Made by a program: the position numbers and the translations under genes. From an uncultured bacterium (lineage in GTDB: Bacteria; Patescibacteriota; Minisyncoccia; Phycocordibacterales; Zambryskibacteraceae): a DNA stretch of 57,567 nucleotides. Positions 3,443 through 54,918 of this stretch are shown piece after piece. The stretch is taken from assembly GCA_963789635.1 (NCBI GenBank), contig CAWBLF010000001.1, positions 1 to 57,567 on the forward strand, read 5' to 3'. Each line of letters opens with the position of its first letter. The stretch's first letter is position 1. The notes beneath the pieces were generated by a model that ran no database searches, was not told where the DNA came from, and saw only the letters and a list, made by a program, of their open reading frames with translations.

Positions 3443-4039
3443 CTACTCCAAAATGCCATCGACATTTACATCATACAAAATTTTTTCCTGAATTAACTTG
3501 TAATTTATCAATTCTTCCGGAGAAAACCAAATTGCAATCTCTTTTTTTGCGTCTTCTGGCTTTTCCGAACAATGAATGAGGTTTCGGACCGCTCTTCCAG
3601 CCATATTTGCCGTTTCATAAGAATCAATAGTGAAATCTCCACGAATTGTGCCGACATCGGAGACTGCCGGTTGTGTCACCCCCACCAACTTTTTAACTAC
3701 AGAGACGGCGCTGGCTCCTTCTACCGCGATTGCCACCACAGGACCAAGCGTAATGTAATGAAGCAATACTTCCACAATTCCTCTGCCATATTCCAGCGGA
3801 GTTTTGGTCGGCTTTTCGCCGGCCTTTTTCATATTTTCCATCAAAGTTGTCCCTTTTTCTATACACCATTGGTCATCTTTGCCGTAATGAATCTCAGCCC
3901 GTTTTCGGTCTGGTACAAACATTTTCATAGCCACTATTTTTAACCCAGTCCTTTCAATACGCTTAATGATTTCACCGACGAGTGATCGCTGGACACCGTC
4001 GTGTTTGATGATGATAAAAGTTTGTTCCTTTTGTGGCAT
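3443..4039 (-). CDS. ndk: nucleoside diphosphate kinase (long form with insertion)
   Basis: TFIIIKHDGVQRSLVGEIIKRIERTGLKIVAMK and NLIHCSEKPEDA (active-site His) match NDK. Start moved to the internal ATG at 4039 (MPQKEQTF). Confidence 0.85.
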   Translation of the reverse strand: MPQKEQTFIIIKHDGVQRSLVGEIIKRIERTGLKIVAMKMFVPDRKRAEIHYGKDDQWCIEKGTTLMENMKKAGEKPTKTPLEYGRGIVEVLLHYITLGPVVAIAVEGASAVSVVKKLVGVTQPAVSDVGTIRGDFTIDSYETANMAGRAVRNLIHCSEKPEDAKKEIAIWFSPEELINYKLIQEKILYDVNVDGILE

Positions 4040-5578: not shown

Positions 5579-6850
5579 TTAGTATTCCCTAGCTGATATC
5601 TGAGCGTTAATTTTGTTTATGAGGTCTATAACCACCGAAACCACGATTAGAAGGGCTGTACCGCCAATTGCCAATGTTTGGATACCGGTCAATGAACGCA
5701 TGACTAACGGCAAAACAGCTATGAGACCGAGGAAAATTGCCCCCACAAGGGTAATTCTAGTTAGAATCTTAGCAATATAATCTGAAGTTGATTGACCGGG
5801 ACGAACACCTGGAATAAACGCCCCACTTTTTTGGAGATTAGTGGAAATTTGTTCGGGATCGAAGGTTACCGCAGTGTAAAAATAGGTAAAGACAAAAACC
5901 AGAAGGAAATATGCTCCGGAATATATCCATTGGTTGTTCAAAATGTTTAGAACAAAACCCGATGCGCTTTTCAACAAAATATTTGCCGAATTTGCGAGAA
6001 AACTGGCAATCATCTGTGGAAACAAAAGTATGGAAAGGGCGAAGATTATCGGAATCACGCCCGCTTGGTTTACTCGCAGTGGAAGGTATGTGGACACTCC
6101 ACCGTATACCTTGTCACCGCGCACACGTTTTGCATATGTAACGGGAATAGGACGCTCGGCTTCGGTAATAATAACTACACCAAAAATAATTGCTATAGCA
6201 AAAACTACGAACGCCAAATATAAGGGAATCTGTGATGGATCAAAAGTAAATGCCAACTGGCTTATAGCGCTCGGCAAACGAGCGATAATGCCAGCAAAAA
6301 TTATAAGTGAAGTCCCGTTTCCCACTCCAAACTCCGTGATAAGCTCACCGATCCACATAATAAGAATCGAACCAGCGGTAATGATGAGCAAATTTGTAAT
6401 CATAGAAAAAGGCGTGAGAGGGTCTATTACGCCTTCCCTGGTAAGCAACGTCAGGAAACCAAACGCTTGGATAAGAGAAAGGGGGACTGTGAGCAAACGA
6501 CTGTATTGAGCAAACTTTTTACGTCCTATATCACCTTCGTCTTGGTAGAGCGCTTTAAGTTTGGGGAAAATAATGGTGGCCAACTGCATTATGATGGAAG
6601 AAGTGATGAATGGACTTACTCCAAGCATGACGATAGAAAGAGTTGAAAATCCTCCTCCTGAAAACAGGTTTAGAAGCCCGAGAAATTGGTTGCCATTAAA
6701 AAAACTTGCAAGTCTGGCGGGGTTTACCCCTGGAATCGGAATTGTCGATAGTAGACGAAAGATAACCAAGGCACCAAGTGCAAAAAGAATACGCTTACGA
6801 AGTGTGCTGTCAGCAAAGATAAGGCGTATTTTTTCTAAAAAAGTATTCAT
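5579..6850 (-). CDS. secY: preprotein translocase subunit SecY
   Basis: 423-aa polytopic membrane ORF with SecY signatures (GVSPFITSSIIMQL, GTSLIIF), downstream of rplO. Confidence 0.95.
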   Translation of the reverse strand: MNTFLEKIRLIFADSTLRKRILFALGALVIFRLLSTIPIPGVNPARLASFFNGNQFLGLLNLFSGGGFSTLSIVMLGVSPFITSSIIMQLATIIFPKLKALYQDEGDIGRKKFAQYSRLLTVPLSLIQAFGFLTLLTREGVIDPLTPFSMITNLLIITAGSILIMWIGELITEFGVGNGTSLIIFAGIIARLPSAISQLAFTFDPSQIPLYLAFVVFAIAIIFGVVIITEAERPIPVTYAKRVRGDKVYGGVSTYLPLRVNQAGVIPIIFALSILLFPQMIASFLANSANILLKSASGFVLNILNNQWIYSGAYFLLVFVFTYFYTAVTFDPEQISTNLQKSGAFIPGVRPGQSTSDYIAKILTRITLVGAIFLGLIAVLPLVMRSLTGIQTLAIGGTALLIVVSVVIDLINKINAQISAREY

Positions 6851-12121: not shown

Positions 12122-12287
12122 GTTATTGATTTTTAAAAAACGAAGTGATTATAAAAATCATCATCCCTCCCCACATTTAACAATGACCATAAATGACCAT
12201 TGGAAGTTTGCTTTGTCATACTATTCTTTTTTTTAAAATTTGATTTCATGTTTAAAAGTGGAGCGGGATGCTCAATAAAAATAGTCG
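12122..12287 (-). promoter_or_regulatory. structured intergenic element, copy 1 (rpsC-rplP spacer)
   Basis: 166-nt spacer. Hairpin A is 12127-12135/12152-12160. The long-range stem pairs 12162-12180 with 12251-12270. Both ends are homologous to the 12960-13128 spacer. Confidence 0.7.
12133..12249 (-). CDS. candidate 38-codon small ORF inside spacer copy 1
   Basis: ATG 12249..TAA 12133 reads MKSNFKKKNSMTKQTSNGHLWSLLNVGRDDDFYNHFVF. It has the same length, frame position and termini as the ORF at 12971-13087. Confidence 0.3.
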   Translation of the reverse strand: MKSNFKKKNSMTKQTSNGHLWSLLNVGRDDDFYNHFVF

Positions 12288-12959
12288 CTATACTTCTTTT
12301 TTATTGGCAAAAATCTCACCGCGGTAAATCCATACTTTGATACCCAAGTGTCCATATGGAAGTTTGGCTTCGTAGTGAGCATAATCCACGTCGGCTCGAA
12401 ACGTCTGAAGAGGAATCTGTCCCATCTTCCTGGTTTCGCTACGAGCTATGGATGAACCGGCCAATCTCCCTCCTATGAAAATCTTTACTCCTTTGACATC
12501 GCGATTTGCCATAACCTTTTCGACCATCTGTTTGATGACTCTTCTATAGGGCAAACGCTTTTCCAAACCCTCGGCGACCATCTGAGCGACGATTAATGCA
12601 TTTGATTCTGGTGATTTGAGTTCACGAATATCAAGTTTGACTTCCTCTTTTCCGCTGTATACCCCGCGTTTTTTCATCATTCTGACAATTTCATCCTTTA
12701 GTTTTACGGCGCCGTCGCCACTGCGACCAATAATCATACCGGGGCGTGATGTCTCAACGATAATGCGAAGCATTTTTTCATTACGTTCAATTTCAATACT
12801 GCTGACATACATGCCTCGCAATTTCTTTTCCAAAAATGAACGGATAACGAGATCACCACGAAGAAAAGACTTGTACTTATCTTTCGCGCCGAACCAACGA
12901 GATTTCCAATCTCTGATTATGCCTAGTCTATGTGAATATGGGTGGACTGTGTGGGTCAT
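12288..12959 (-). CDS. rpsC: 30S ribosomal protein S3
   Basis: 223-aa ORF with the KH domain and S3 C-terminal blocks (GIIRDWKSRWF, GRLAGSSIARSE). Confidence 0.9.
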   Translation of the reverse strand: MTHTVHPYSHRLGIIRDWKSRWFGAKDKYKSFLRGDLVIRSFLEKKLRGMYVSSIEIERNEKMLRIIVETSRPGMIIGRSGDGAVKLKDEIVRMMKKRGVYSGKEEVKLDIRELKSPESNALIVAQMVAEGLEKRLPYRRVIKQMVEKVMANRDVKGVKIFIGGRLAGSSIARSETRKMGQIPLQTFRADVDYAHYEAKLPYGHLGIKVWIYRGEIFANKKEV

Positions 12960-13128
12960 GTGGCTGATTTTTAACGAGCGGAGCGAGTATTAAAATCGCC
13001 ATCCAGCTCCACTTTTAATGCAAACTTCATGTGATTACTGAAAGTGTGCTGTGCTAGCATATCATTTTTTATAAAATGTGATTTCATGTTTAAAAGTGGG
13101 GCTGGATACTCAAAAAATATATTGTTCA
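12960..13128 (-). promoter_or_regulatory. structured intergenic element, copy 2 (rplV-rpsC spacer)
   Basis: 169-nt spacer. Hairpin A is 12966-12974/12990-12997. The long-range stem pairs 13001-13018 with 13090-13107. It is a paralogue of 12122-12287. Confidence 0.7.
12971..13087 (-). CDS. candidate 38-codon small ORF inside spacer copy 2
   Basis: ATG 13087..TAA 12971 reads MKSHFIKNDMLAQHTFSNHMKFALKVELDGDFNTRSAR. It is a paralogue of the 12133-12249 ORF. Confidence 0.3.
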   Translation of the reverse strand: MKSHFIKNDMLAQHTFSNHMKFALKVELDGDFNTRSAR

Positions 13129-14053: not shown

Positions 14054-14911
14054 TTACTTCTTCCCCACCTTCCTTCTTCGAACGATGTAAACGTTTGAAT
14101 ATTTTTTCGGTCGACGAGATTTTTGACCCTTGCCTGTTGGTCGGCCGGTGCGTGTTTTTTGTCGACGGCTGCCACGTCCGCTACGGCCTTCACCTCCACC
14201 GTGCGGATGGTCTACCGGGTTCATCGCTGTTCCTCTCACGGTAGGACGAATACCCAGCCAACGAGAACGGCCGGCTTTACCAAGATTTACCAGACGGTTC
14301 TCATCATTGGAAACTTCACCCAACGTAGCAAAACAATTTTCACTGACTTTACGAATTTCCGACGAAGGCATCTTGAGGTCAACCTTACCCGCGTCTTTGG
14401 CTACAACTTCAATGTAGTTACCTGCAGAGCGTCCGAGCTTACCACCTCCATGGGGTTTGACTTCCACATTGTATACAAATGTTCCCAACGGAATATTTTT
14501 TAATGGCAGACGATTACCCGGTGTTTGCGGAGCGGATTCACCTGTCATCAATACGTCTCCAACTTTAACTCCTTTGGGTAACAACACGTAACGCTTTTCT
14601 CCGTCACGATAAACTGCAAGACCGATAAAACCTGTGCGATTTGGGTCATACTCCACACTTGAAATGGTGTAGGGGATGTTCAATTTGTCATACATAAAAT
14701 CAATTTCACGAAACAAACGCTTGTGTCCTCCCCCTTTGTGCGAAGTGGTGATGCGACCGTGGTGATTGCGTCCCATTTTACGGCTAAAACCTGTCGTTAA
14801 AGACTTGTGAGGATTTTGCTCGGTAACAATCTTCGAATAGTGAATCGAAGTCATGTTGCGTCGCGATTTTGTTGTCGGTTTGTAGTGTTTCATTTTTTTA
14901 TACAAATTCAA
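14054..14911 (-). CDS. rplB: 50S ribosomal protein L2
   Basis: GRNHHGRITTSHKGGGHKR and RGTAMNPVDHPHGGGEGR match L2. Confidence 0.95.
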   Translation of the reverse strand: MNLYKKMKHYKPTTKSRRNMTSIHYSKIVTEQNPHKSLTTGFSRKMGRNHHGRITTSHKGGGHKRLFREIDFMYDKLNIPYTISSVEYDPNRTGFIGLAVYRDGEKRYVLLPKGVKVGDVLMTGESAPQTPGNRLPLKNIPLGTFVYNVEVKPHGGGKLGRSAGNYIEVVAKDAGKVDLKMPSSEIRKVSENCFATLGEVSNDENRLVNLGKAGRSRWLGIRPTVRGTAMNPVDHPHGGGEGRSGRGSRRQKTRTGRPTGKGQKSRRPKKYSNVYIVRRRKVGKK

Positions 14912-15242
14912 TCTTGTCTCCTTTCTTCAAATAGACAAGCGCTTTTTTGCCACCCGCGCGAAATCCTTTTTTGCCACGCGAAATAGTATTCTTCCTTGGT
15001 ATAGTAACGATACTGACCTTTGTCGGAGTAACTTTGTAACTTTCGACCACAGCGTCATGAATTTGTGATTTTGTTGACGATGGTATCACATTGAAAATAT
15101 AAACATTATCATTCATGGCCTTATCCGAAGCTTTTTCGGTAATACGCGGGCTTAAAAGAATGTGAGTAAGGTGATGCATGCCGGGAACTTTTTCGGTTTT
15201 TGAAACTTCTTTTGATTCTTTTGAAACTTTTTTTATAGCCAT
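14898..15242 (-). CDS. rplW: 50S ribosomal protein L23 (N-terminal extension)
   Basis: ILLSPRITEKASD... and KKALVYLKKGDKIE match L23. Located between rplD and rplB. Confidence 0.85.
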   Translation of the reverse strand: MAIKKVSKESKEVSKTEKVPGMHHLTHILLSPRITEKASDKAMNDNVYIFNVIPSSTKSQIHDAVVESYKVTPTKVSIVTIPRKNTISRGKKGFRAGGKKALVYLKKGDKIEFV

Positions 15243-15252
15243 AAAAATATCC

Positions 15253-16047
15253 TTATTTAACGGTCTTTTTTGTCTTACTTGGTTTGGTAGCTTTGGCTTT
15301 TATTTTGACGGAAGCTGTGGCTTTTCTCGTCGCCCGAACCGGCTTGGACGAAACAATCGCATCAGAAGTCTTGTTTTCAAGCGGTGTCTTCACTTTTGAC
15401 TCCAAAAGGGCGATAGCCTCTTTTGATCCGACCAAAACAATACCTTTGTACTGCAAAAGCATTAGTGGATTAAGATTTCTTACCTCATCTACGGTGACAG
15501 TTTCAATATTGCGAAGACTTCGGACAACACTTTCATCGCGAGTAGCGAGAGCAATCAAAAGAGCGTTGCCCTTTTTTTCAAATGAAGGAAAATTCTTTAT
15601 TTCTTTGCTGAGCAAAGAAAGTGTGGAAACCGCCATTTTGGTCTTCGCGTCATTTATGGAAAGCGAATCAATAAAAAATATCTCACCATCGCGAAATTTT
15701 CTGGAAAGGATGGTGTAAAGAGCCTTGGCTTTCATGCCACGACCCACTTTACGGGCATAATTTTTATCGTTGCGTGGGCCGTGAGTTACACCTCCACCTA
15801 CCCATATTGGTGAGCGAGTAGAGCCGTGTCGCGCTCGGCCGGTACCCTTCTGTTGCCAAGGTTTTTTGCCTCCTCCACTCACCTCACCTCTTGTTTTGGC
15901 ATGGGCGATAGTTTGTCTGGCATTCGATGCCATGGACACAGCGACTTGGTGGACCAAATCGGAATTCCAACGTAAACCAAAAACATGTTCTGGAAGTGTG
16001 ATCTTTCCTGTCTCTACTCCTTTTTGGTTGTACACTACTGATTCCAT
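15253..16047 (-). CDS. rplD: 50S ribosomal protein L4 (about 50-aa Lys-rich C-terminal extension)
   Basis: GGGKKPWQQKGTGRARHGSTRSPIWVGGGVTHGP matches L4. Confidence 0.9.
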   Translation of the reverse strand: MESVVYNQKGVETGKITLPEHVFGLRWNSDLVHQVAVSMASNARQTIAHAKTRGEVSGGGKKPWQQKGTGRARHGSTRSPIWVGGGVTHGPRNDKNYARKVGRGMKAKALYTILSRKFRDGEIFFIDSLSINDAKTKMAVSTLSLLSKEIKNFPSFEKKGNALLIALATRDESVVRSLRNIETVTVDEVRNLNPLMLLQYKGIVLVGSKEAIALLESKVKTPLENKTSDAIVSSKPVRATRKATASVKIKAKATKPSKTKKTVK

Positions 16048-16083
16048 GTTTTATTTGAAATTATCAATCGGTTTTCAAGATTC

Positions 16084-16701
16084 TTAATTTTTTCCCCTTA
16101 TTTCCACAAGCGTGCCACGACGACCCGGTACTGCACCAGAAACCAAAATGAGATTGTCTTCAGGATTGATTTGGATCACCTTAAGATTCTTCACCGTGAT
16201 GCGATCACTGCCCATTCGGCCACCCATACGCATTCCTTTTGGCACTTTGTTACGCAAACCTCCTCCAATAGAACCCGGCTCACGTTCGGAGTGCTTTTGA
16301 CCGTGGCTTCTTGGGCCTCCTTTGAAACCGTGACGCTTAACAACACCCTGGAACCCTTTTCCTTTTGAGGTGGCAGAAACAGAAACCACGTCTCCCTCAG
16401 CGAAAGAAGAGACGTCGATAGTACTTCCCAGTTCAGGGGTTGGGTCTTCATTACCGACGCGAAACTCTCTGACGGTGGCAAAAGAACCTTTGCCGGCGAA
16501 ATGCCCCTTTAGAGATTTTGTGAGATTCTTCTCTTTTTTCTTACCAAACCCCAATTGTACGGCTTTGTAGCCATCACGAGCCGGGTCTTTGATTGCAGTA
16601 ACGACCTGTTTGTCTGAGGTTAATACTGTCACAGCAGTAACCCGGCCTTCACTGTCGAAGACCTGAGTCATGCTATGCTTTTTTGCCAAAAGAAATTTCA
16701 T
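16084..16701 (-). CDS. rplC: 50S ribosomal protein L3
   Basis: GKGFQGVVKRHGFKGGPRSHG matches L3. Confidence 0.9.
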   Translation of the reverse strand: MKFLLAKKHSMTQVFDSEGRVTAVTVLTSDKQVVTAIKDPARDGYKAVQLGFGKKKEKNLTKSLKGHFAGKGSFATVREFRVGNEDPTPELGSTIDVSSFAEGDVVSVSATSKGKGFQGVVKRHGFKGGPRSHGQKHSEREPGSIGGGLRNKVPKGMRMGGRMGSDRITVKNLKVIQINPEDNLILVSGAVPGRRGTLVEIRGKN

Positions 16702-16860
16702 CTCGTTACAAAAACTTTAATATATCGAATTGCTTGCCTATCCTAATGATTTTTGACTTTTTGTCTACCCTGACTAGAACAAACCCCCCGTTGAGATTTC
16801 GTACGGGACAAAAAGATTTTCTTCTCTATTCCCTATTCATTATTACCTATTCGTTTCGTA

Positions 16861-17268
16861 TTACATCAACTTCACATCAATATTCACTCCGGACGGAAGA
16901 GAAAGGTTTGTTAGCGACTCGATTAGTTTTGGTGTCGGGTTAACAATGTCAATCAATCGCTTATGAATCCTCATCTCAAACTGCTCTCGCGCATTTTTGT
17001 AGACGAAGGAAGCTCGATTGACCGTATACTTTTTGATTTCTGTAGGCAGAGGAATCGGCCCCAGAACTTGCGCATCATAACGCATAGCTGTATCCATGAT
17101 TTGTTTGACCGAAAGATCAAGAATCTTGTACTCGTAAGCGCGCACACGAATACGCAGACGTGACACGGATATCTCCTTGGAAACTTTTGGCGCTCTGGCG
17201 ACTTTCGCCGTTGCTGTGACTTTGGATTTCTTTGGTGCGCTCTTTTTTGTTGTAGTTTCTTTAGCCAT
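16861..17268 (-). CDS. rpsJ: 30S ribosomal protein S10 (about 35-aa Lys/Ala-rich N-terminal extension)
   Basis: [15 protein letters not shown]... and [18 protein letters not shown] match S10. ATG at 17268 preferred over TTG at 17274. Confidence 0.9.
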
Positions 17269-17332
17269 AATCAATTTGCAATGAACGACTTACAATGGAA
17301 CAAATTTTGTTCTTTATCCTTTATATTTGTGT

Positions 17333-18541
17333 TTATGCGGTAATCTTCGTCACCACTCCTGCGCCAACAGTCTTACCTCCTTCGCGGATGGCAAAACGCT
17401 GTTGGTCTTCAAGAGCAATAGGCGAAACGAGTTTTACTTTAAAGGTAACAGTGTCACCAGGCATTACCATTTCTACCCCCTCTTTGAGAGTAACTTCTCC
17501 GGTCACATCAGTGGTTCGGATATAGAATTGTGGCTTGTAACCGGTGAAGAATGGTGTGTGTCTTCCCCCTTCTTCCTTTTTCAACACATAAACTTCTGAT
17601 TCAAATTCAGTGTGAGGAGTAACTGAACCAGGTTTTGCAAGAACTTGTCCGCGAGTAATGTCTTCTTTTTTAAGACCTCGGACCAAGATACCGGCGTTAT
17701 CTCCGGCCATACCACTGTCGAGAGACTTGTTGAACATTTCAATGCCGGTAACAACTGTCTTGGCCGTAGGCTTTAGACCCACAACCTCGACTTCTTCACC
17801 TACTTTGACGGTGCCTCGTTCAATTCTTCCGGTAACCACAGTCCCTCGTCCTTCGATAGAAAAGATGTCTTCTACCGGCATGAGGAATGGCTTATCAACT
17901 TCGCGGACCGGGTTTGGAATAAAGGTGTCAAGAGTTTTTACAAGCTCCATAACCTTCAGTGCCCACTCATCATCCGCAGATTTTGATTCCAAAGCCTTAA
18001 GACCCGAGCCTCGAATGATAGGGGCGTTTGCACCATCAAAACCCTGCTTGGTGAGAAGTTCGCGTATTTCTTCTTCCACAAGGTCAATAAGTTCCTTGTC
18101 GGGAACCATGTCGCATTTGTTTAGGAAAACAATGACTTTTGGCACACCTACTTGTTTGGCAAGGAGGATGTGTTCACGAGTCTGTGGCATAACACCGTCG
18201 GTAGCAGCCACCACCAACACCGCGCCATCCATTTGTGCGGCTCCGGTAATCATGTTTTTTATGTAGTCAGCGTGTCCTGGAGCGTCGATGTGCGCATAGT
18301 GACGATCGGGAGTCCAGTATTCGGAGTGGTGAAGCGCAATAGTAATTCCACGAGCCTTTTCTTCGGGAGCACTGTCAATCTTGTCGACGGCTTCAACGCG
18401 AGCACCATAACCCTTATCCTTGTTCATATCAAGGACGTGAAGGATGGAGGCTGTCAAAGTCGTTTTGCCGTGGTCAACGTGGCCGATAGTACCCACATTC
18501 ACGTGAGGCTTGGAACGATCAAATTTTGTTTGTTCTGCCAT
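17333..18541 (-). CDS. tuf: elongation factor Tu
   Basis: 402-aa ORF with [18 protein letters not shown] and NKCD G-motifs, intact throughout. Confidence 0.97.
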
Positions 18542-19491: not shown

Positions 19492-19572
19492 TGTGTGTCC
19501 CCTCCTAGAGAATGTGCGAGTTCTGTTTCCTAAGTCACATTATTCTTAATATTATTGGGTGTCAATACAAAC

Positions 19573-19614
19573 AAAAAACTTGCGTGATAACTTTGGTTAT
19601 CACGCAAGTTTTTT
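19573..19614. terminator. 19-bp perfect palindromic hairpin with A/T runs on both sides (bidirectional terminator)
   Basis: aaaaaacttgcgtgataac-tttg-gttatcacgcaagtttttt. Confidence 0.8.
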
Positions 19615-19625
19615 GTTAATTATTT

Positions 19626-20018
19626 TTACGACTGAAAAGGACCGTCTCCTGTTAGAATTCTGGAAAAACTACCGGCTAGGAACGGCAAATTATCTGCGTT
19701 GATACCCCTTTCCTCAAGCATTACTATCATTTGTTTATGCGCTTCTGGAGATGCACTGCGTAGTTGCTTATGTAATTCTGTAGCTTGTGTCTGACCTAAT
19801 TCAGCAACTCGATTGTTGGCCGAAATTTGTTCGTCAGTAGACTCCTTAGACAGCACCGACTGCTTATATGACTCTTTAGTAGAAACAAATTCATCAACCC
19901 CGTTCTTAAACCTTAAAACAGCTTTCTCGTCGTCACTCAAACCTTCCCATCTAGTTTCATCTGATTCTTGTGCAGACACAGGCACTTCAGGGGCTGAATT
20001 AAAACTTTCCATTCCCAT
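19626..20018 (-). CDS. orphan acidic hypothetical protein (130 aa) with the MGMExFNxAP N-terminus
   Basis: ORF MGMESFNSAPEVPVSAQESDE... Its first 13 codons and about 50 nt upstream are repeated at 54836-54918. Confidence 0.6.
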   Translation of the reverse strand: MGMESFNSAPEVPVSAQESDETRWEGLSDDEKAVLRFKNGVDEFVSTKESYKQSVLSKESTDEQISANNRVAELGQTQATELHKQLRSASPEAHKQMIVMLEERGINADNLPFLAGSFSRILTGDGPFQS

Positions 20019-20069
20019 ATTTTTTTAATTTAATTGTTAATCCGCGACTTAATTCTACCCCCCCCACCT
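19988..20069 (-). repeat. promoter/leader/N-terminus module, copy 1 (contains a G8 tract)
   Basis: About 80% identical to 54836-54918. Minus strand reads TTGCAA-15 nt (ending in G8)-TAGAAT, then about 34 nt, then ATGGGAATGGAAAGTTTTAAT. Confidence 0.8.
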
Positions 20070-20091
20070 GGATTGCAAGGCTGACTTGGAA

Positions 20092-20127
20092 CATCAAAAA
20101 ACCCCGAATAATGGGCTTTTTTTGATG
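20092..20127. terminator. palindromic hairpin flanked by A/T runs downstream of fusA
   Basis: catcaaaaaacccc-gaataat-gggctttttttgatg. Confidence 0.65.
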
Positions 20128-20192: not shown

Positions 20193-22349
20193 TTATTTCC
20201 TACTCTCAATAATTGTCTGTGCAACATTTGTCGGCACGATGGCATAGTGATCAAATTCCATAGTAGACGACCCGCGACCTTCGGTCATTGAGCGGAGAGA
20301 TGTGACATAACCAAACATTTCAGAAAGAGGAACTTTCGCTGTGATAACTTTGAGTTCTCCACGATCACCCATACCTTCTATTTGCCCGCGTTTAGATGAA
20401 AGATTTCCGGTGATATCACCCATAAATTTTTCCGGTACCACCACCTCTATTTTCATAATTGGTTCGAGGATGACTGGACCGGCTTTCTTGGCGGCTTCTT
20501 GAAATGCTTGTGACGCGGCAATTTTGTAGGCAATTTCAGATGAGTCCACATCGTGGTAACTTCCAAATGTCAGCTCGCAAGAAATATCTGTCATCTTGAA
20601 TCCGGCCACTACTCCGCGGTCCATAGATTCGTGAACTCCTTTTTCAACAGCAGGAATAAATTCTTGTGGAATAACACCTCCTTTGATTGAGTTTATAAAT
20701 TCAAATCCGGGTTCTCGATGCGAATTCTTTGGCACTTTTTCTTCAGGATCATAGTGAGGAAGCGGTTTGATGTTGATGACGACGTGACCGTACTGACCTT
20801 TTCCTCCGGTCTGCTTGATGTATTTGTTTTCCACTTCTGCTGTGCCAGTGATAGTTTCTTTGTAAGCCACCTGCGGTTTGCCCACGTTTGCTTCCACAGA
20901 AAATTCTCGTTTCATTCGGTCAACCAAAATTTCGAGGTGGAGTTCACCCATTCCCATAATGACCGTCTCACCTGTCTCGGGATCTGATTTGATTTTAAAT
21001 GTTGGGTCTTCATCAGAAAGACGCTTGAGCGCCATGCCCATTTTTTCCTGGTCAGCTTTTGTTTTTGGTTCAATGCGCAGACTTATAACCGGTTCTGGAA
21101 ATGTGATTTGATCAAGAATAATCGGATGATTTTCATCACAGAAAGTGTGTGAAGTTTTTGCATCCTTTGAGTCCTACTGCTGCGGCAATTTCTCCCGCGA
21201 AAACTTTTTTGACCTCCTCACGGTCGTTGGCCTGAAGACGCACAATACGGCCAAGGCGTTCTTTTTTGCCGGTGGTTGAATTGTAAATATAGCTTCCTGA
21301 TTCAATAGTTCCGGAGTAGACACGGAAGAATGTCAGCTGACCCACAAACGGGTCTGCTTGTAGTTTGAAAGCCAGTGCTGCAAATGGCTCTGTGTCAGAT
21401 GCGTGACGAATGACTTCTTCACCGGTGTTTGGGTCAATGCCCTGTAACTGGCGGAATATCGAGTGGAGATGGGAGATAATCTACGACACCATCAAGAATG
21501 AGCTGGACTCCTTTGTTCTTGAGAGCAGAACCTGCATACACGGGGAAAATCTTGTTTGCAATAACGGCTTTGCGAAGTGTCGACTTTCAAAGTTTCAAGT
21601 GAAATTTCTTTTCCTTCAAGATATGTTTGGGTCAACTCATCATCACTTTCTGCGATTTTTTCTACAAGTTCGTGTCGGTATTTTTCTGCATCAGCTTTGA
21701 GATTTTCCGGAATTTCTTTTTCAACCACGTCCCTACCGAGTTCGCCTTCAAAGTCATACATTTTCATTTTCAAAAGGTCCACGACACCTTCGTGTTTGTC
21801 TTCTTCTCCGACAGGAATCTGCATTCGCACCGCTTTTTTGGAAAGTCTGTCAAGGATGGATTTGTATGAACGTTCAAACGATGCACCGGTGCGATCAAGT
21901 TTGTTGACAAAGCAAATACGAGGCACGTTTGCGTCTTCGGCATAACGCCAGTTTGTTTCTGACTGTGGCTCCACTCCGGCTACTCCGTCAAAAACGACTA
22001 CAGCGCCATCTAGCACGCGTAGAGATCGTTTCACTTCCACGGTGAAATCAATGTGACCAGGGGTATCAATAATATTGAAACGAACTTTGTTTTCTTTTTT
22101 TGTTCGCTCTTCCTTTGAAAGATATGTTGGAGCCCAAAAACACGTGATGGCCGCCGCTGTGATGGTGATACCGCGTTCGCGCTCTTGTTCCATCCAGTCG
22201 GTGGTGGTTTCTCCTTCATGCACTTCACCGATGCTGTGTTGCGCGCCGGTGTAATACAAAACACGCTCACTTGTGGTGGTTTTACCGGCATCTATGTGCG
22301 CAATGATTCCGAAGTTTCTTACTCGCTCTAAAGGATAGTCCCGTTCCAT
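20193..22349 (-). pseudogene. fusA: elongation factor G, full length but interrupted by three +1 frameshifts
   Basis: ORFs 21492-22349 (G domain, [18 protein letters not shown]), 21136-21345 (domain II) and 20193-21041 (domains III-V) together span 2157 nt, about 719 codons. Frame breaks lie at 21585-21587, 21440-21442 and 21164-21168. Confidence 0.85.
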
Positions 22350-22478: not shown

Positions 22479-22889
22479 CTAGGTAAGTCTTTTTTGGAGC
22501 GAAAGTAAGTAAAGCATAAATAACATACAAAAAACTATGCCTGTGGGATTATTATAAAAAGTAGGTTCGTAAAGATAAGTGGCGGCGCTCAAAATGGAGC
22601 ATAATATAAACACATAGAAACCCCACCTCTTCATTTTCCTCAAACCCAGATAAGCAAAAAAATATAAAATGTAAATTACTAGGGATGAGACTACTCCCCA
22701 AAGCACCATCAGATTGCCTATCGCAAGAGCATAAATAAACACCTCCAAACTAAGTCCGGTAATAACCAGGTTCATTATGACTCCGAGCCCAGTCCCAATT
22801 AAACCCAAAATGGTGATGATGCGAAGAACGAGTGGCGCTTGATTTGTTTGGCCCATAATTTTACTATTATTGTAAATTAAGTATACCAA
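22479..22889 (-). CDS. small polytopic membrane protein inserted between rpsG and fusA
   Basis: 136-aa ORF (or 125 aa from ATG 22856) with about 4 predicted TM helices. No family recognised. Confidence 0.55.
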   Translation of the reverse strand: MVYLIYNNSKIMGQTNQAPLVLRIITILGLIGTGLGVIMNLVITGLSLEVFIYALAIGNLMVLWGVVSSLVIYILYFFAYLGLRKMKRWGFYVFILCSILSAATYLYEPTFYNNPTGIVFCMLFMLYLLSLQKRLT

Positions 22890-36814: not shown

Positions 36815-38035
36815 TTATTGTATGACGTTAACCAAAGAATACATTGGTGAAAGCATCGAAACGGCAAAAAATCCTACTCCAATACCCATCACCACCATCA
36901 GTAGTGGCTCGATGATTGTGGACATATCTTTTGTCTTTTGATCCACGTCTTCTTCGTAGTAAACAGCCACTCCGAGGAGCATTTCTGCCATTTTGCCAGT
37001 TTCCTCACCGACGTTAATCATTTCTCCGACAAAAACCGGATATAATTTTTCATTTGCTATAAAAATATCAGACATTGGTTCACCCTTTTGAATAGTTTTC
37101 TGAGCCATCTCCAACACTTCTTTGTAATACGAATTTTGCAGGACGTCGCGTGTCACTTCAATCGCCACCACAATGTCCACTCCGGAAGAAAGAAGGGAAG
37201 ACAGTGTGCGTGTGGTACGCGCTGAATTTATTTCTTTGGTAATCGGACCGACAATGGGAGAGTGGAGAATCAGATAATCCGCAATTCTTTTGCCACTTTT
37301 GCTCTTTCCTCCGAAAAAGATAAATAGGGCTACAAAGAGCACCGCCACCAATGTCGCTATGTAGTGGTTTTTTAAAAAATTGCTCAGATTGATGATAAAC
37401 ATCGTGCTGGCCGGCAGTTGGGCGCCAAGACCAGCAAAAGTGGATGATAATGTCGGCACCACATAAAGGAGCATCAGTATCCCGATGGCCACCATAATGG
37501 TCAAAACCACGCCAGGGTAGATGAGTGCTCCGCGGATTTTCTTTGTCAATTGGTTAGATTTATCCATTTGCGAGGAGACGACCTTGAGCGACCCTGCGAG
37601 GTTACCACTCTCCTCTCCCGCCTTTACCATCGAAATAAAAAGTGAAGAAAAAACATCGCCCATGCTTCTCATTGAATCGGAAAGAGTTTTTCCTTTGCTT
37701 ACATCATTGTTTAAATTATTTAAAACTTTTTTTAGTTTATTATTTTTGGTTTGCTTCTCCATTACCGACAGCGAACGTGTTACGGAAAGTCCGGCTTCGA
37801 TCATAGAAGCGAGATTTCGGGCAAAAATAATTTTTTCCTGTGTGCTGATTCTTGAAATAAGAGATTCAAAGGATTGGAGTGTCTTTGCGGAACCGCTCTT
37901 TTTTTCGGACACGGAAATGACAACCCCCCCGCTTTCTTTTACAATTTTATACACCGCAAAACGGTCTGCGGCGTCTGTTTCGCTCTCGTACATCTTCCCT
38001 TCCTTGTCTTGCGCTTTATATGAAAAAATCGGCAT
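36815..38035 (-). CDS. pilC: type IV pilus platform protein PilC (GspF family)
   Basis: Two GspF repeats with 3 TM segments. Start set at ATG 38035 (MPIFSYKAQDKEGK), 4 nt after the pilB stop. Confidence 0.85.
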   Translation of the reverse strand: MPIFSYKAQDKEGKMYESETDAADRFAVYKIVKESGGVVISVSEKKSGSAKTLQSFESLISRISTQEKIIFARNLASMIEAGLSVTRSLSVMEKQTKNNKLKKVLNNLNNDVSKGKTLSDSMRSMGDVFSSLFISMVKAGEESGNLAGSLKVVSSQMDKSNQLTKKIRGALIYPGVVLTIMVAIGILMLLYVVPTLSSTFAGLGAQLPASTMFIINLSNFLKNHYIATLVAVLFVALFIFFGGKSKSGKRIADYLILHSPIVGPITKEINSARTTRTLSSLLSSGVDIVVAIEVTRDVLQNSYYKEVLEMAQKTIQKGEPMSDIFIANEKLYPVFVGEMINVGEETGKMAEMLLGVAVYYEEDVDQKTKDMSTIIEPLLMVVMGIGVGFFAVSMLSPMYSLVNVIQ

Positions 38036-39968: not shown

Positions 39969-42900
39969 CTAGAACTCCTTAAACGCTGGGTTAATCACGA
40001 CCTGCACCGAAGCCGAAGCGCTACCGGTATTACCCAGACTGTCTTTGACGGTGCATGTCGCGGTCTTCGTCCCTACCGTCTGATATGTGATGCTAAATGA
40101 TCCTGACGCAGGTGGCGGACTGGGGAAATCAGTGCCCGAACAAGTATAAGTGTATGGACCAGTCCCTCCTGTCACTATAAATTGCCACGACACCGAATTA
40201 CCCACGTATGCGGTCGGAGAAACGGAAGGAGTGACAGTCAAGCTAGTCGGGGCCGTCACATTGAGATTGAAGCTCGTGCTTTTGTTAACTCCACCACTTG
40301 TTCCATTCACTGTAATTGGGTAATTGCCGGTAGCCACACTAGATGGGGCAGTTATGTTGATAAATATATTACATGTCGGATTGCAACCGTTGTTTGCATA
40401 ATTGTATGCCAAGTTTGCGGGAGCTCCAGATATGGATAATATCACCCCTTGAGTGGAACCGCTGTTTAGAGTAACCGCGATTGTTTCCTGCTGTTGCGAT
40501 CCGCCTTGAGCAACAACCAATGTCCCTTGATTTGGCGAAAGACTATAACTGTAGGTGGAACAACTTATGCCATTCCAACTGCTTCCCGATGCGCAACTTG
40601 TGGTGACATTAGTTTGAGCAAGCAATAAGCTGTTGTTATAGAGGAAAAAGTTCACACCTGAAGAGTTGTAAGGAACGGTGAAGTTTTGTGAACCATTATT
40701 TCCATTCGAAGGACTTGGCGTCCCAGTCGGACTGGTGACCGCCGAAGTGGCCACTGGGTTGGTCGTTGTCCACGTGAGACTTTGTGTACAACTACTTGCA
40801 CCGGAGGCGATAGTGCAGGTCGGGTTCAATGGGGTCAGAGTACCTGCCATTGTGCCACCGGCGGTACAAGCGCTACCGCTCCACGCTGTACCAGAAACGC
40901 AAACAGTACTGACATTTGTTTGGGCAAGAATAGTGCCGTTGTTATACAAATAAAAATTAACTCCAGATGGGTTATAAGGAGCACTGAAACTCTGCGAACC
41001 GTTGTTACTAGTTATCGGACTTGGCGTTCCGCTTGGGCTGGTAACTTGTGAAGTTCCTATTGGGTTAGTAGTTGTCCAAGTCAAAGTCTGAGCGCAACTG
41101 TTTGCACCTGATGCGATAGTACAAGTTGGATTAAGTGGAGTGAGTGTTCCCGTCGGAAGAGCGGTTGTCGTAAATGTTGCAGTTGGAGAATACCCTGTTC
41201 CAGCGCTGTTTGTGGCATACCCGCGATAATAATACAGAGTGCCTGGAGTCATACCCGTTCTGGATTGTGAATATGTTCCTGTAACTGTACCTCCTTCTGG
41301 TACGCAATTTGTCGTTGGTGAAGTCGTGGTTCCCCAGCACGTACCACGGGCCGATATAACAGCCGGACTACCCAAAGACGTGACGTTTGCCCCCAACAAA
41401 GCGCTCGTCGTTGTAATGGTTGTGGCAGTAGGAGTCGTGACAGTCGGTACAGCATTGGCTACGCAACTTGTGCCATTCCATGTACTTCCAGACGCGCAAG
41501 TGACATTTAGAGTAAATGACGTTGAATGAGTAATAGTCGTAGCAGGACTGTATGTAATAACAATCACACCTGAAGCACCGTTGCCACCCTTTGTACTGAA
41601 ACCAGAATTAGAACCGCTACCTCCACCACCATAAAGCCCTCCATTAGATCCGTTGTTATAAGCGCCTGTACCATTATTATTACTCCCTGGACCACTGGCA
41701 CCACTTCCCGAGCCAGCTGTTCCCCATTCGGTACCGTTGTTACCAATGGCACCAACACAATAGCCACTGAAATTAATGACGGAGGACACTGTGGCGCCTC
41801 CCGAACCCGCATCTCCTGCGCCACCAGCACCACAAGCCTGACCAGCTGGCGCGCCTCCAGCCTGACCGGGTCCGTTGGGTCCTGCGGCTCCTCCACCTCC
41901 ACCGGCATCAGTATAGTTGGTATTAATAGAATCTGAATTTCCACCATTTCCGCCAGAATAACCTGTGCCATATAACACAGTTCCTCCTGTGCCTCCGACC
42001 AGATTTCCACCACTAAAGCTATTCAATCCTGGTTGACCACCACCTGCACCTACTGTTGTATTGTTAAATGTGGTGTTTCCCCCCGCGGTTGCGTTTACAC
42101 TTGACGACTGTCCGCCCGTACCACCAGCACCTATAGTTATTGGAATATAACCTCCGGGGGAAAGCGTCACATTGGATACTTTGGCATATGCACCACCTCC
42201 ACCACCCACATCTGAATAGTAAGAAAAGTCAGATCCACCACCACCACCACCAATAACCTCAATTTTATTACTGGAATTATTCCAATCAGACGGGACTGTC
42301 CAGCCTGTTCCACTAGTCAAAATAATTGTTTTCGCCGCGCCTGCGGAATTTGCTGTTCCCGTCACGGTAATCGGATAAGTGCCATATGTCGCGCTAGCTC
42401 CCACTGTAAAGTTGACAAGAGAATTGCAAGCCGGTGAGCATCCCTGATTTGTGTAAGTAAATGTGACATTGGCGGGTGCGCCGCTGGCTGTTATCGTCAC
42501 CGGCTGAGATGTCCCAGAAAGGACAGTAAGCGGAATAGTCTCCGAGCCGGATGAACCTTGGGCAATACTTATTGTTCCGCTGTTGGAAATACCGAAGTCA
42601 AAACCGCCTCCGCTTGCTGTCACTGTCACAGTGCCTGAACCGGAACCATTGCCGTTGGCGTTTGAACAAACTTTTGTATAGGTCGTTGTTGAACCAGGAT
42701 AAACAGTGACCGAGCCAGACAGGGCGGTTGACCCACTCCACGCATCGGTGGAACATGATGTCGCTCCGCTGGAACTCCATGTGATAGTCGTTGAACCGCC
42801 GGAAGTGACGCTTGATGGCGAAGCGGAAACAGTAACTGTCGGGACACTGCCCGCCGTCACCGTTAGCATAGCCGAGCCGGAATTACTGCCGTTGGCGTTT

Positions 42901-43868
42901 GAACAAACTTCCGTATAAGTCGTTGTGGAACCGGGATTGACCACGACTGACCCCGACAGAGCGGTTGAACCGCCGTTCCAAGAATTACTGCTACACGATG
43001 TCGCTCCGCTGGAACTCCACGAAATTGTGGACGAACCGCCGGAGGTGACGCTCGAAGGAGAAGCGGTAACTGTCACAGTCGGGACACTGCCGGAACACGA
43101 GCCTCCCACCGCGTCGGAAGCGGAAACTGAAACTGATGCACTACCTGTCTTTCCACTACTACTATTTGTACAGGTTATTGAATAACTTAAAGGACTGGTG
43201 GCAGGATGAACAAGTTGGCTTCCCGACACCGCTGTAGAAGCGGTCCACGGAGCGGAACAGGAAGTGGCATTACTTGAAGACCACGTCAGAGTGGTGCCCG
43301 CACTGCATGAAAATGGGTTTGGTGAAGCGGAAAGAGTTGCAGTGACGTTAGGAGATGTAGGTAGTAAGTACCAATTAATCATGTAGTTGTCGCTATCCCC
43401 TGGAAAAACAATTAATGATGTTGGCGTTACGGTTGTCCCAGTCACCTGATACCCGCTGGGGGCGGTCAGTGGATTAATACACTCGGATATTCCGCTGGAG
43501 GTCGGATATAACGTATAAGGTGAAGTCGTATGACCTGTGCAAGATTGCCAAGTTCCTCCCATGGGGTTTTGAGTCACGGATACAGAAGCCGAAGCCGTAA
43601 AAGTCACGGTCTGGCTGGCTACCGCTATCTGGCTTGGGGCTGATGGTGGATATTGTGGACAACCAAGTGTCCCCGGCCATGCGTCGTTTGTTGAATATAC
43701 TGTGATACCGCCATCACAGCTAAGCTGATAAACAGTAAGCGTGTATGATTCGCTGTCGGAGGAGGCAGTGGTGCTCCAAGTTCCACTCAGTGTTCCGGGA
43801 GTATAAGTGCCTCCTTGCGTATTGCTCAATGAAGCCATGGGACAACCACTACTAAATGACCATGCCAC
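39969..43868 (-). CDS. giant Thr/Ser/Gly-rich repeat surface protein, main reading frame (1299 aa)
   Basis: Ig-like tandem repeats (..TVTASPSSVTSGGS.TI.WSSSGATSCS..), a central glycine-rich block (IEVIGGGGGGSDF...GGNGASGVIVITY) and further repeats. Continues upstream into 43894-44269 after a frame break. Confidence 0.8.
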   Translation of the reverse strand: MAWSFSSGCPMASLSNTQGGTYTPGTLSGTWSTTASSDSESYTLTVYQLSCDGGITVYSTNDAWPGTLGCPQYPPSAPSQIAVASQTVTFTASASVSVTQNPMGGTWQSCTGHTTSPYTLYPTSSGISECINPLTAPSGYQVTGTTVTPTSLIVFPGDSDNYMINWYLLPTSPNVTATLSASPNPFSCSAGTTLTWSSSNATSCSAPWTASTAVSGSQLVHPATSPLSYSITCTNSSSGKTGSASVSVSASDAVGGSCSGSVPTVTVTASPSSVTSGGSSTISWSSSGATSCSSNSWNGGSTALSGSVVVNPGSTTTYTEVCSNANGSNSGSAMLTVTAGSVPTVTVSASPSSVTSGGSTTITWSSSGATSCSTDAWSGSTALSGSVTVYPGSTTTYTKVCSNANGNGSGSGTVTVTASGGGFDFGISNSGTISIAQGSSGSETIPLTVLSGTSQPVTITASGAPANVTFTYTNQGCSPACNSLVNFTVGASATYGTYPITVTGTANSAGAAKTIILTSGTGWTVPSDWNNSSNKIEVIGGGGGGSDFSYYSDVGGGGGAYAKVSNVTLSPGGYIPITIGAGGTGGQSSSVNATAGGNTTFNNTTVGAGGGQPGLNSFSGGNLVGGTGGTVLYGTGYSGGNGGNSDSINTNYTDAGGGGGAAGPNGPGQAGGAPAGQACGAGGAGDAGSGGATVSSVINFSGYCVGAIGNNGTEWGTAGSGSGASGPGSNNNGTGAYNNGSNGGLYGGGGSGSNSGFSTKGGNGASGVIVITYSPATTITHSTSFTLNVTCASGSTWNGTSCVANAVPTVTTPTATTITTTSALLGANVTSLGSPAVISARGTCWGTTTSPTTNCVPEGGTVTGTYSQSRTGMTPGTLYYYRGYATNSAGTGYSPTATFTTTALPTGTLTPLNPTCTIASGANSCAQTLTWTTTNPIGTSQVTSPSGTPSPITSNNGSQSFSAPYNPSGVNFYLYNNGTILAQTNVSTVCVSGTAWSGSACTAGGTMAGTLTPLNPTCTIASGASSCTQSLTWTTTNPVATSAVTSPTGTPSPSNGNNGSQNFTVPYNSSGVNFFLYNNSLLLAQTNVTTSCASGSSWNGISCSTYSYSLSPNQGTLVVAQGGSQQQETIAVTLNSGSTQGVILSISGAPANLAYNYANNGCNPTCNIFINITAPSSVATGNYPITVNGTSGGVNKSTSFNLNVTAPTSLTVTPSVSPTAYVGNSVSWQFIVTGGTGPYTYTCSGTDFPSPPPASGSFSITYQTVGTKTATCTVKDSLGNTGSASASVQVVINPAFKEF
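40555..41165 (-). repeat. two ~300-nt tandem coding repeats (GTLTPLNPTCTIASGA... modules)
   Basis: Protein segments TLTPLNPTCTIASGANSCAQTLTWTTTNP... and TLTPLNPTCTIASGASSCTQSLTWTTTNP... are consecutive. Coordinates approximate. Confidence 0.6.
41560..42310 (-). other. glycine-rich domain region of the giant protein
   Basis: WTVPSDW..IEVIGGGGGG..GGGGAY..VTLSPGGYIPITIGAGGTGG..AGGGGGAAGPNG..GASGVIVITY pattern. Coordinates approximate. Confidence 0.6.
42600..43090 (-). repeat. two ~243-nt tandem coding repeats (Ig-like SSVTSGGS.TI.WSSSGATSCS modules)
   Basis: Near-identical DNA blocks, e.g. cgatgtcgctccgctggaactcca...gaaccgccggaagtgacgct at about 42758 and about 43000. Coordinates approximate. 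Confidence 0.6.
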
Positions 43869-44635: not shown

Positions 44636-45820
44636 CTAAGTTGCATTATGCTCACCCAAGCACATGTTTGCCCTCCACCCAGGGTGTGTATGGTCTCCGC
44701 CGATACGAACGTCGTCCCAAAAATGGACCATATGCGAATCGGGCACTACGATATTTACATACCCGTTACAAAAGTCCGGGGTTTCTTGCCAAGTACCGCC
44801 GGAGCCAAGGTTGGTTGGGCTATAATTAATCAGCGTTCCACAACCCCTGCTCAAGGTGACACTATCCGTAAGAGTGAAGAGCTTGAGTCCAAAAACGGTC
44901 TCCATAGAAGCAAGTGCCACCTCAAAATGCGAGGAATCCAGAGCTGTTGTGACACCGCTCAGGGCTACCGGAACCGGTAAGGTCTTCCAATCACCCACAG
45001 CATAAACGTATGAATCGTCTGGTAACTGGTCACGTCCATAGAATGAAAGATGTGTGTCGTTCGGTATCAACTGATACGCGCTGTCCAGGTGAATGGGAAT
45101 TACCTGACCAGTGTATGTACCTGTCGGGATTGTAACTTCGTTTGGAACGAGAATGGGGTTAAAGTTGGCATCATACGTTTTGGGGACATCCGCTGCGAAC
45201 CACTTGAGGTTCGGATCTCCACGAAGAATAATGGGAACCGTATCCATGATGGCAAACTTGGGGTTTTTAAAATTAGCACTTCCATCGCTACCCACAAGTA
45301 TGGAATCTGTGGCTACCAAAAAGGTGGAATCAACAATCACTGCATATTCATGTTGAAATGTATGTGCTCCACCATCTAGGTCGGCCACCCACACATGAAG
45401 GTTCATTGAGGCCGGCACTACAGTGAAGGTAGTACAAACTTGCGATGACTTAATTCCTGAGGAAGTTGAGATTGCAACCACACACAGTGTGTGAGAACCA
45501 AGCGGAAACAACATTGACAGACTGTCTGTAGTGGCGGAAATCTCTGCGCCATCTGCCGTCCAAGCAAAGCTAAATGTATCACCCCCCCGGTTGGGAGAAC
45601 TTGCCGAAGCGGTGATGGAGACCAAGGCATTTGGATATCCAGTCGCCGTCTGTGACAACGTTGACCCTGAAGTTGGGGCGACGATGCTTGCCGTAACAAC
45701 TTCCAGTGGAGGCGTTTGCTTATTACTTGTGCCAGGCGCAGTAGAACTACTGCAACCGACGATGAGGAGAGTGGCCGCGCACGCGGCCGCAATCGCGCGG
45801 AGCCGAATCATGTACGACAT
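44636..45820 (-). CDS. lipoprotein of unknown function (GC-rich, canonical SD)
   Basis: Lipobox MSYMIRLRAIAAACAATLLIVGC. Upstream aaaggaggaagu-AUG. N-terminal region about 55-60% GC by hand count. Confidence 0.7.
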   Translation of the reverse strand: MSYMIRLRAIAAACAATLLIVGCSSSTAPGTSNKQTPPLEVVTASIVAPTSGSTLSQTATGYPNALVSITASASSPNRGGDTFSFAWTADGAEISATTDSLSMLFPLGSHTLCVVAISTSSGIKSSQVCTTFTVVPASMNLHVWVADLDGGAHTFQHEYAVIVDSTFLVATDSILVGSDGSANFKNPKFAIMDTVPIILRGDPNLKWFAADVPKTYDANFNPILVPNEVTIPTGTYTGQVIPIHLDSAYQLIPNDTHLSFYGRDQLPDDSYVYAVGDWKTLPVPVALSGVTTALDSSHFEVALASMETVFGLKLFTLTDSVTLSRGCGTLINYSPTNLGSGGTWQETPDFCNGYVNIVVPDSHMVHFWDDVRIGGDHTHPGWRANMCLGEHNAT

Positions 45821-54504: not shown

Positions 54505-54644
54505 GTTTACTATTTGATATACGACTAAGCTCACTTATCTTTTTTCAACCATTTCTCCTCCCACAATTTTTTACTTTCTTTCTCTTCATCATCATGTCTT
54601 TGCCGCCAGATTTTCCCCAACCTCTGCACCCGCCTCCGCTTCAC

Positions 54645-54866: not shown

Positions 54867-54918
54867 ATTTTTAGAATTAAATTGTTAAACTCAACAATCC
54901 AATTCTACCCCCCCCACT
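54836..54918 (-). repeat. promoter/leader/N-terminus module, copy 2 (contains a G8 tract)
   Basis: Minus strand reads TTGTAT-15 nt (ending in G8)-TAGAAT ... ATGGGAATGGAAAACTTTAAC. About 80% identical to 19988-20069. Confidence 0.8.

Follow-up and report, generated by a model that had tools for sequence, protein, structure and literature searches.

In Neisseria meningitidis, the porA promoter holds a poly-G tract between its -35 and -10 elements, and expression is high with 11 G residues, 2-fold lower with 10G and 13-fold lower with 9G (PMC3639595). The tp0126 promoter of Treponema pallidum similarly contains a poly-G tract between these elements, with a 17-nt optimum and tracts of 7-11 G that vary in vivo, and the T. 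pallidum paralogs tprE/G/J/L share poly-G promoters (PMC7864442). Here, we describe a module of comparable design in a contig of 57,567 nt (CAWBLF010000001.1; the whole of it is referred to as the window) from an uncultured bacterium of the Zambryskibacteraceae. The module consists of a predicted promoter with a run of eight G residues (G8) in its spacer, a leader and the first codons of a small open reading frame (ORF), and it occurs twice on the minus strand, as copy 1 ahead of ORF1 and as copy 2 ahead of ORF2.

The likeness to porA lies in the placement of a G homopolymer within a sigma-70-type spacer, where each G alters how far the -35 hexamer lies from the -10 hexamer. Whereas the porA tract comprises 9-11 G and varies within strains, one length, G8, was seen here; and whereas porA encodes a surface antigen, the module precedes genes for small, cytoplasmic-looking acidic proteins in a free-living or episymbiotic environmental Patescibacterium. 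T. pallidum and the present host are both small-genome bacteria. For tp0126, however, measurements exist of how the tract varies and of what this does to transcription, while the G8 tract is known at the level of consensus sequence; furthermore, the tpr tracts are placed immediately upstream of the transcription start and not always within the spacer, in contrast to the tracts described here. In Mycoplasma hyorhinis, the vlp paralogs share a promoter, a leader and an N-terminal block, carry a poly-A tract (~17 nt) in the -35/-10 spacer and are divergent in the remainder. The vlp products are surface lipoproteins that have repeats and a conserved signal peptide, whereas the present module lacks a signal peptide and has only two copies. 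Finally, so-called mobile promoters are promoter regions that occur upstream of non-homologous genes. A promoter block of ~95 nt at two unlinked loci of one genome is reminiscent of these, but the genes downstream of the two copies are most likely paralogs, which points to gene duplication with fast divergence.

Taken together, the data lead us, with modest confidence, to interpret the module as the conserved 5' end of two paralogous small-protein genes, in which the G8 tract is a fixed feature of a moderately weak promoter. Each copy combines a weak -35 hexamer (TTGTAT or TTGCAA), a G-rich spacer, a good -10 hexamer (TAGAAT), an unstructured leader and a protein start reading MGME(S/N)FN. Copy 2 occupies a conserved locus downstream of a tRNA-Gly gene, and copy 1 sits in a self-contained cassette of ~0.5 kb within a variable slot. 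The G-rich spacer would have become a pure G8 tract in this lineage, giving the 15-nt spacing, and slippage would be a potential only, with G9 producing a spacing of 16 nt and G10 one of 17 nt. The sequences themselves show the anatomy, the paralogy, the conservation in an ortholog and the cassette indel; that the promoter is active, that the ORFs are translated and that the tract is fixed are inferences.

Anatomy of the duplicated module

A first-pass annotation of this DNA had described a two-copy module on the minus strand with an exact 15-nt spacing, eight residues of which are the G run, and both copies were found to read in this way. In copy 1, the -35-like hexamer TTGCAA (20073-20078; read off the sequence) matches TTGACA at four of six positions. 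It is followed by a 15-nt spacer (20058-20072; tccaggt + G8), of which the G8 tract forms the 3' end (20058-20065; C8 on the plus strand), by the -10-like hexamer TAGAAT (20052-20057), which matches TATAAT at five of six positions, and by an AU-rich leader of 33 nt (20019-20051) that includes TTAACAATTAAATT; the ATG of ORF1 lies at 20018. Copy 2 has the same layout, with TTGTAT (54923-54928; a 3/6 match), a 15-nt spacer (54908-54922; tttcagt + G8) ending in the G8 tract (54908-54915; C8 on the plus strand), TAGAAT (54902-54907; again 5/6), an AU-rich leader of 35 nt (54867-54901) and the ATG of ORF2 at 54866. Neither leader contains a Shine-Dalgarno site. Both hexamers of copy 2 are identical in an orthologous locus of a relative (contig L010), and by sequence comparison the TTG is equally spaced in copy 1, copy 2 and L010.

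In both copies, TAGAATT is followed by the AU-rich leader and then by ATGGGAATGGAAA. The leader and N-terminal block (53 nt) are 87% identical between the copies (blastn E = 6e-9), which also have in common an exact 17-mer, GTGGGGGGGGTAGAATT (E = 3.5e-4). This similarity far exceeds chance. The repeat, previously put at ~82 nt, is thus real; the coordinates given for it were too short, however, as the similarity extends upstream to the -35-like hexamer.

The two C8 runs on the plus strand are the only G/C homopolymers of at least eight residues in the window, for which we estimate from base frequencies an expected number of ~0.4-0.5. Because the copies are paralogous, the two runs count as one event. 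The existence of a G8 tract is therefore unremarkable by itself; it is its position within the promoter that is remarkable. The remaining long G/C runs are two C7 runs (plus strand; G7 when read in the coding direction), at 37924-37930 and 45582-45588, which lie within a pilC-like T2SSF gene and a 394-amino acid (aa) ORF with no Pfam match, respectively; both are in frame as assembled.

Each copy looks like a sigma-70-type promoter, as predicted from hexamers that are close to TATAAT and TTGACA. The module appears to be a genuine promoter because it lies directly past a terminator at both loci, is followed by an ORF and is conserved at the orthologous tRNA-Gly locus in a relative. Its spacer is 15 nt in both copies and 16 nt in L010, against the usual 16-18 nt. 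The strongest intergenic promoter-like sites of the clade, including that of tuf and a promoter in the corresponding slot of contig L006, have 16-18-nt spacers, so that the 15-nt spacing has to be counted as short, and a consensus promoter scan omits both copies because of it. The consensus sequences of alternative sigma factors (sigma-54, sigma-B, sigma-H and sigma-28) were also considered, and none gave a convincing fit to the module.

Given that the conservation spans the leader and the first codons and that a Shine-Dalgarno site is absent, the conserved block might instead be an RNA element, i.e., a riboswitch, a thermosensor or a small RNA. We consider this very improbable. Rfam gave no match at either locus at E values up to 5, and the folding energies were equal to or worse than those of shuffled sequences (z = +1.0 for copy 1 and +0.3 for copy 2, with a further value of -0.16). 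In addition, a small hairpin in the leader of copy 2 is missing from copy 1, and distant homologs retain the N-terminal peptide as a protein sequence.

Orthologous loci and the length of the G tract

Copy 2 lies at a conserved locus marked by a tRNA-Gly(GCC) gene (55076-55149, minus strand). Between the terminator of this gene and the copy 2 promoter is a GC-rich element of ~100 nt (54930-55035, minus strand), which ends in a second tRNA-Gly 3' end (CGATTCTCCCTACCCGTACCA) and which the promoter directly abuts; ORF2 is convergent with the HU gene. L009 and L010 are contigs with ~77% DNA identity to the window and with 95% identity in RNase Y. In both, the tRNA-Gly gene, its terminator and an analogous element that finishes with a further copy of their own tRNA 3' end are followed by CTTGTAT-tttcggtGGTGGAGGG-TAGAATTGAATTGTTAATTTAACAAC...ATG. 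The promoter and leader are 82.7% identical between the window and L010 over 81 nt, as compared with 77-79% for the flanking genes. This conservation of hexamers and leader is the best evidence that the predicted promoter is real.

The tract of L010 is interrupted (GGTGGAGGG) and its spacer measures 16 nt; a single T deletion and a single A/G change separate the G8 tract of the window from it. Given this interruption, richness in G is what has been conserved, and a pure homopolymer is not. The L010 gene behind this promoter encodes 232 aa and is not detected by the family profile described below, though its first codons align. In a third lineage, an upstream-extended gene call (P0247, in the same cluster as the homolog P0244) translates as ...SCNLRGGGKLDVYQLNTKI-MGMESFN. 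The protein points to an upstream sequence comprising TTGTAA, a 15-nt G-rich spacer, TAAATT and a homologous leader. If this back-translation is correct, a G-rich spacer of 15-16 nt may be the normal state of the family's promoter.

Three observations of tract length were available at the consensus level, and all are G8: copy 1, copy 2 and one unitig from an estuary metagenome (X1). The X1 unitig (151 nt, depth 2) spans 54860-55010 and is identical to the window, with C8. The two paralogs both have G8 although ~13-20% of the flanking positions differ. Two Logan contigs, L003 and L004 (run ERR12035936), derive from a near-identical strain and agree with the window at 99.93-99.98%. Position 1 of L004 corresponds to 20025 in the window, and the contig begins there with A6 in the leader's A7 run, 7 nt ahead of the start codon of ORF1; this end could be caused by low coverage or by a polymorphism just upstream.

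Further copies of the module, which had been suggested as something to look for, were detected neither in the window nor in the 10 kb by which L003 extends the same genome to the left. Pattern scans of a genome collection yielded no copy, only an unrelated Kiritimatiellia promoter (L001); those of a metagenome collection gave no copy and one chance match within a coding region (L002); and scans of viral collections found no copy. The L001 sequence, on contig JBJFGP010000245.1 of a Kiritimatiellia metagenome-assembled genome, reads TTGACA-tca-G18-TAGAAT (3519-3536) and precedes a 740-aa protein starting MGMEIIKRARLVW..., with a signal-peptide-like N-terminus. As a candidate for phase variation, this poly-G spacer is more convincing than the G8 tract of the window. 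Runs of G or C of at least seven residues were absent from the 10-kb L003 extension and from the relatives' loci (L005-L010), and the two C8 and two C7 runs in 57.5 kb of a partial genome do not amount to an excess of long G/C tracts of the kind that a contingency set would form.

These data bear on whether the module is a phase-variable or 'volume-control' promoter, in which slipped-strand changes from G8 to G9 or G10 would set the spacing at 16-17 nt and give stochastic low-to-high expression. We regard this as unlikely, if plausible in the light of porA and tp0126. Both of these resemble the module in anatomy, in that a homopolymer lies within the spacer, here between predicted hexamers; the only G/C runs of at least eight residues in the window are both at the same promoter position; the clade's strongest intergenic promoter-like sites have 16-18-nt spacers; and the ortholog spacer, 1 nt longer, means that an indel occurred in the tract during evolution. 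Conversely, no length heterogeneity was seen at the consensus level, the two paralogs and the X1 unitig all having G8, and the ortholog does not preserve a pure tract. The P0247 translation suggests that 15 nt may be normal for the family, G8 is near the lower limit of the lengths that switch at useful rates, and nothing across the 67 kb examined points to a wider set of tracts. Moreover, the regulated proteins are not recognizable products of surface or restriction-modification genes, and our literature searches found no report of phase variation in Patescibacteria. The indirect evidence leans against an obligatory hypervariability of the G8 tracts. A fuller version, in which G8 is a true slippage switch, a lineage-specific family of small acidic proteins is under the stochastic control of a single hypermutable promoter block, and this block was also copied, within a self-contained cassette of promoter, ORF and terminator, into the str operon between fusA and tuf, seems to us less likely again.

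If slippage were nevertheless to occur, Patescibacteria (candidate phyla radiation) would have their first described case of phase variation by a simple-sequence repeat. Contingency loci would then be used even by tiny uncultivated episymbiotic bacteria, and the small-protein family would be flagged as needing on/off switching, perhaps in host interaction. If the tract is fixed, the case is ordinary: a small gene has been duplicated, evolves fast and keeps a conserved G-rich promoter, which would chiefly illustrate the variable small cassettes that interrupt translation-gene operons in these genomes.

A further explanation is that the G8 runs are assembly or sequencing artefacts, arising from poly-G error or a miscalled homopolymer length. 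The fusA gene next to copy 1 (20193-22349, minus strand) has three single-base insertions within ~450 nt (near 21585, 21440 and 21165; frame 0->1->2->0), two of which lie outside homopolymers, whereas fusA is intact (717 aa) in L005-L008. Either the assembly is in error at these breaks or an essential gene has truly become a pseudogene; an alternative genetic code was ruled out as their cause because they are frameshifts and not in-frame stops. A T4/T5 difference also separates the window from the Logan contig L003. For the G8 runs themselves, however, we find an artefact scarcely credible, since an identical tract occurs at two separate loci in conserved context, the X1 unitig, from another run, reproduces copy 2 exactly, the ortholog is G-rich at the equivalent place, and the Logan contigs agree closely with the window.

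The small-protein family encoded downstream

ORF1 (19626-20018, minus strand) encodes 130 aa (MGMESFNSAPEVP...), and ORF2 (54645-54866, minus strand) encodes 73 aa before it meets an in-frame TGA (54645-54647). Beyond this TGA, the frame continues for 37 codons (54531-54644, minus strand) ending in ...KKLWEEKWLKKDK, and this continuation resembles the C-terminus of the homolog P0246. ORF2 is probably truncated or a pseudogene, or it is affected by a base error; read-through is a further option for the TGA beside truncation and mis-sequencing.

When 1.84 billion cluster representatives were scanned in full with HMMER, four small homologs of ORF2 were identified (P0243-P0246; 87-126 aa), with ~52% identity over residues 1-50 (E = 3e-5 to 4e-4), and members of the ORF2 family thus occur in other metagenomes. 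Their N-terminal ~50 residues follow the consensus MG(M/F/A)E(S/N)FN..P..P(D/E)ES(E/K)R(V/I)(E/D)D..KA.AMAR.SD..H..AA..R. ORF2 scores 99.8 bits against a hidden Markov model (HMM) of the family that was built with ORF2 included. In contrast to this, a search of 5.8 billion proteins with ORF1 returned nothing but ORF1 itself, i.e., no close homolog. ORF1 does match the family HMM weakly (E = 1.5e-4 in a local search), mostly over residues 1-20, and is 27% identical to P0244 across 123 aa. By BLASTP, the similarity between ORF1 and ORF2 extends to residue 19, with 12/19 residues identical and a one-codon gap, and their shared start carries a synonymous change in addition to this in-frame gap. 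Judged from these sequences, ORF1 and ORF2 are diverged paralogs.

Contig look-ups with ORF1, ORF2 (both start versions), a UPF0102-like ORF (56831-57223), S7 and RNase Y gave no match. Searches for the function of the family found no Pfam, NCBIfam, PHROG, PADLOC or Protein Data Bank (PDB) sequence match. An AlphaFold2 model based on a five-sequence alignment (predicted local distance difference test score, pLDDT, 59) contains a single helix at residues 24-48, the rest being coil, and was too poor for a fold search; its N-terminal 20 residues are coil at a pLDDT of ~60. The predicted products of ORF1 and ORF2, if translated, would be small, acidic and mostly disordered. By inspection, the N-termini MGMESFNSAPEVPVSAQESDE and MGMENFNAAPVPPTEDESKR are acidic and proline-rich and have no hydrophobic stretch, and they show none of the features of Sec, Tat or lipoprotein signals, namely a charged n-region, an h-region of 7-15 or more residues and a cleavage motif.

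These findings alter how the module is to be understood. The two proteins had been called unrelated after codon 13, and their shared N-terminus had been proposed to be a targeting or secretion tag for variable cargo. The former is incorrect and the latter finds no support, as the similarity continues to residue 19, both ORFs match the same family profile, and the N-terminus is the conserved start of one family with no signal-peptide character, the supposed cargoes being paralogs. The duplicated unit of promoter, leader and N-terminus itself is supported, but because ORF1 is a divergent paralog in the family of ORF2, it is best explained as a duplicated gene start and not as a tag on unrelated proteins.

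Several points nonetheless weigh against our preferred interpretation of two paralogous genes with a fixed G8 tract. The fixity of the tract is deduced from three consensus-level observations, one of them at a depth of 2, and minority length variants stay hidden in consensus sequences. For copy 1 there is a single observation, since L004, the sole independent assembly of that locus, ends 33 nt from the G8 tract. The promoter is a predicted one whose 15-nt spacing lies outside the usual range, so that either it is weak or its true -35 element is something other than the TTG hexamer. ORF2, with its in-frame TGA, may be a pseudogene; the paralogy of ORF1 is statistically weak beyond the first 20 residues; and the fusA frameshifts cast some doubt on the base-level accuracy of the local assembly.

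The fusA-tuf slot and other surroundings

Copy 1 occupies the slot between fusA and tuf. Directly upstream of it, a terminator-like hairpin with a T-run follows fusA (20095-20124, minus strand; AAAAAAAGCCC...GGGGTTTTTT), and the homologous fusA terminator, followed by GATGTT, is also found in L006-L008. The order within the slot is fusA, the conserved hairpin and terminator, the promoter, ORF1 and a strong bidirectional terminator hairpin with a 20-bp stem (19572-19615), which closes the ORF1 cassette. Beyond this terminator lie two small ORFs (95 and 100 aa), which have a TTGACA-17-TAATGT promoter to themselves, then a terminator and finally the tuf promoter, TTGACT-16-TATTAT.

The cassette itself, comprising a terminator stem, the promoter, the leader and ORF1, measures ~0.49-0.5 kb (19629-20116, minus strand; approximate boundaries). 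It is absent from L005, a relative with ~87% DNA identity and a near-identical EF-Tu, in which 200 nt separate the intact fusA from the 95-aa ORF and the ~0.5 kb carrying promoter copy 1 and ORF1 is lacking. In L006-L008, the slot holds different cargo behind a canonical TTGACT-17-TATTAT promoter. On account of these differences among L005-L008, the fusA-tuf slot is a hot spot of cargo turnover.

That the cargo of the copy 1 slot differs among relatives would also fit a role of the 5' module as a recombination handle, through which homologous recombination swaps or captures downstream bodies such as ORF1, ORF2 and the 232-aa gene of L010. In keeping with this, the similarity between the copies drops sharply past about codon 19, and in L010 the promoter, leader and first codons (ATGACAATAGAA vs ATGGGAATGGAA) precede a protein that the profile does not detect. 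We consider such a role improbable, however, as just ~95 nt at 80-87% identity make a poor substrate for homologous recombination, and the weak full-length similarity of ORF1 to P0244 fits the ordinary fast divergence of a disordered acidic protein. Furthermore, neither copy adjoins a recombinase, and no silent cassettes or extra copies were found in the collection scans, the window or L003. The possibility that the two copies, as direct repeats 34.8 kb apart, form the ends of a genomic island was rejected, as the interval holds core genes such as rpsL, rpsG and fusA along with type IV pilus genes, recJ and comEC.

Small inserts of this kind are not confined to the fusA-tuf slot. Between S7 and fusA, the window carries a 136-aa membrane-like ORF (22479-22889), whereas L005 has a 23S_rRNA_IVP (PF05635) protein (818-1177) and L006 a 128-aa ORF (5877-6263). 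L006 additionally has ~2.7 kb with three ORFs between L2 and S19 (14654-17335) that are not in the window. In this clade, variable small inserts are a feature of the str and ribosomal operons.

The closest homologs of EF-Tu and RNase Y are labelled Patescibacteria, Parcubacteria, Paceibacterota or Zambryskibacteria, which places the window in a Patescibacteria genome of the Paceibacteria/Parcubacteria type. The window contains the str, S10 and spc ribosomal operons, type IV pilus genes, comEC, recJ, clpP and rny. A 90-nt intergenic element occurs twice in its S10 operon (12194-12283 and 13032-13121; 78% identical), just past the points at which the L22-like and S3 genes stop, in spacers of ~166-169 nt that are unusually long for a ribosomal operon; L006 has a related copy (20377-20547) between L14 and L24. 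An ORF of 1299 aa (39969-43868) with no Pfam match has a GC content of ~50%, vs 43%, and internal repeats with a period of ~237-240 nt (42616-43091).

The GC-rich element upstream of copy 2 (54930-55035) had no Rfam match and could be the remnant of an attachment (att) site or a tRNA-like RNA. Its 5' GGAGAATCG is able to pair with its 3' CGATTCTCC. The element core (54950-55011) has 80-90% matches in many contigs from unrelated metagenomes (depth to 469, run X4) and nevertheless differs in the close relative L010, whose own element (12955-13085) also ends in the tRNA-Gly 3' end of that species. In parallel to this partial tRNA-Gly copy, two partial 5' copies of tRNA-Pro (56207-56254 and 56627-56674), 75-94% identical to the tRNA-Pro(TGG) gene, adjoin two intact tRNA-Pro genes.

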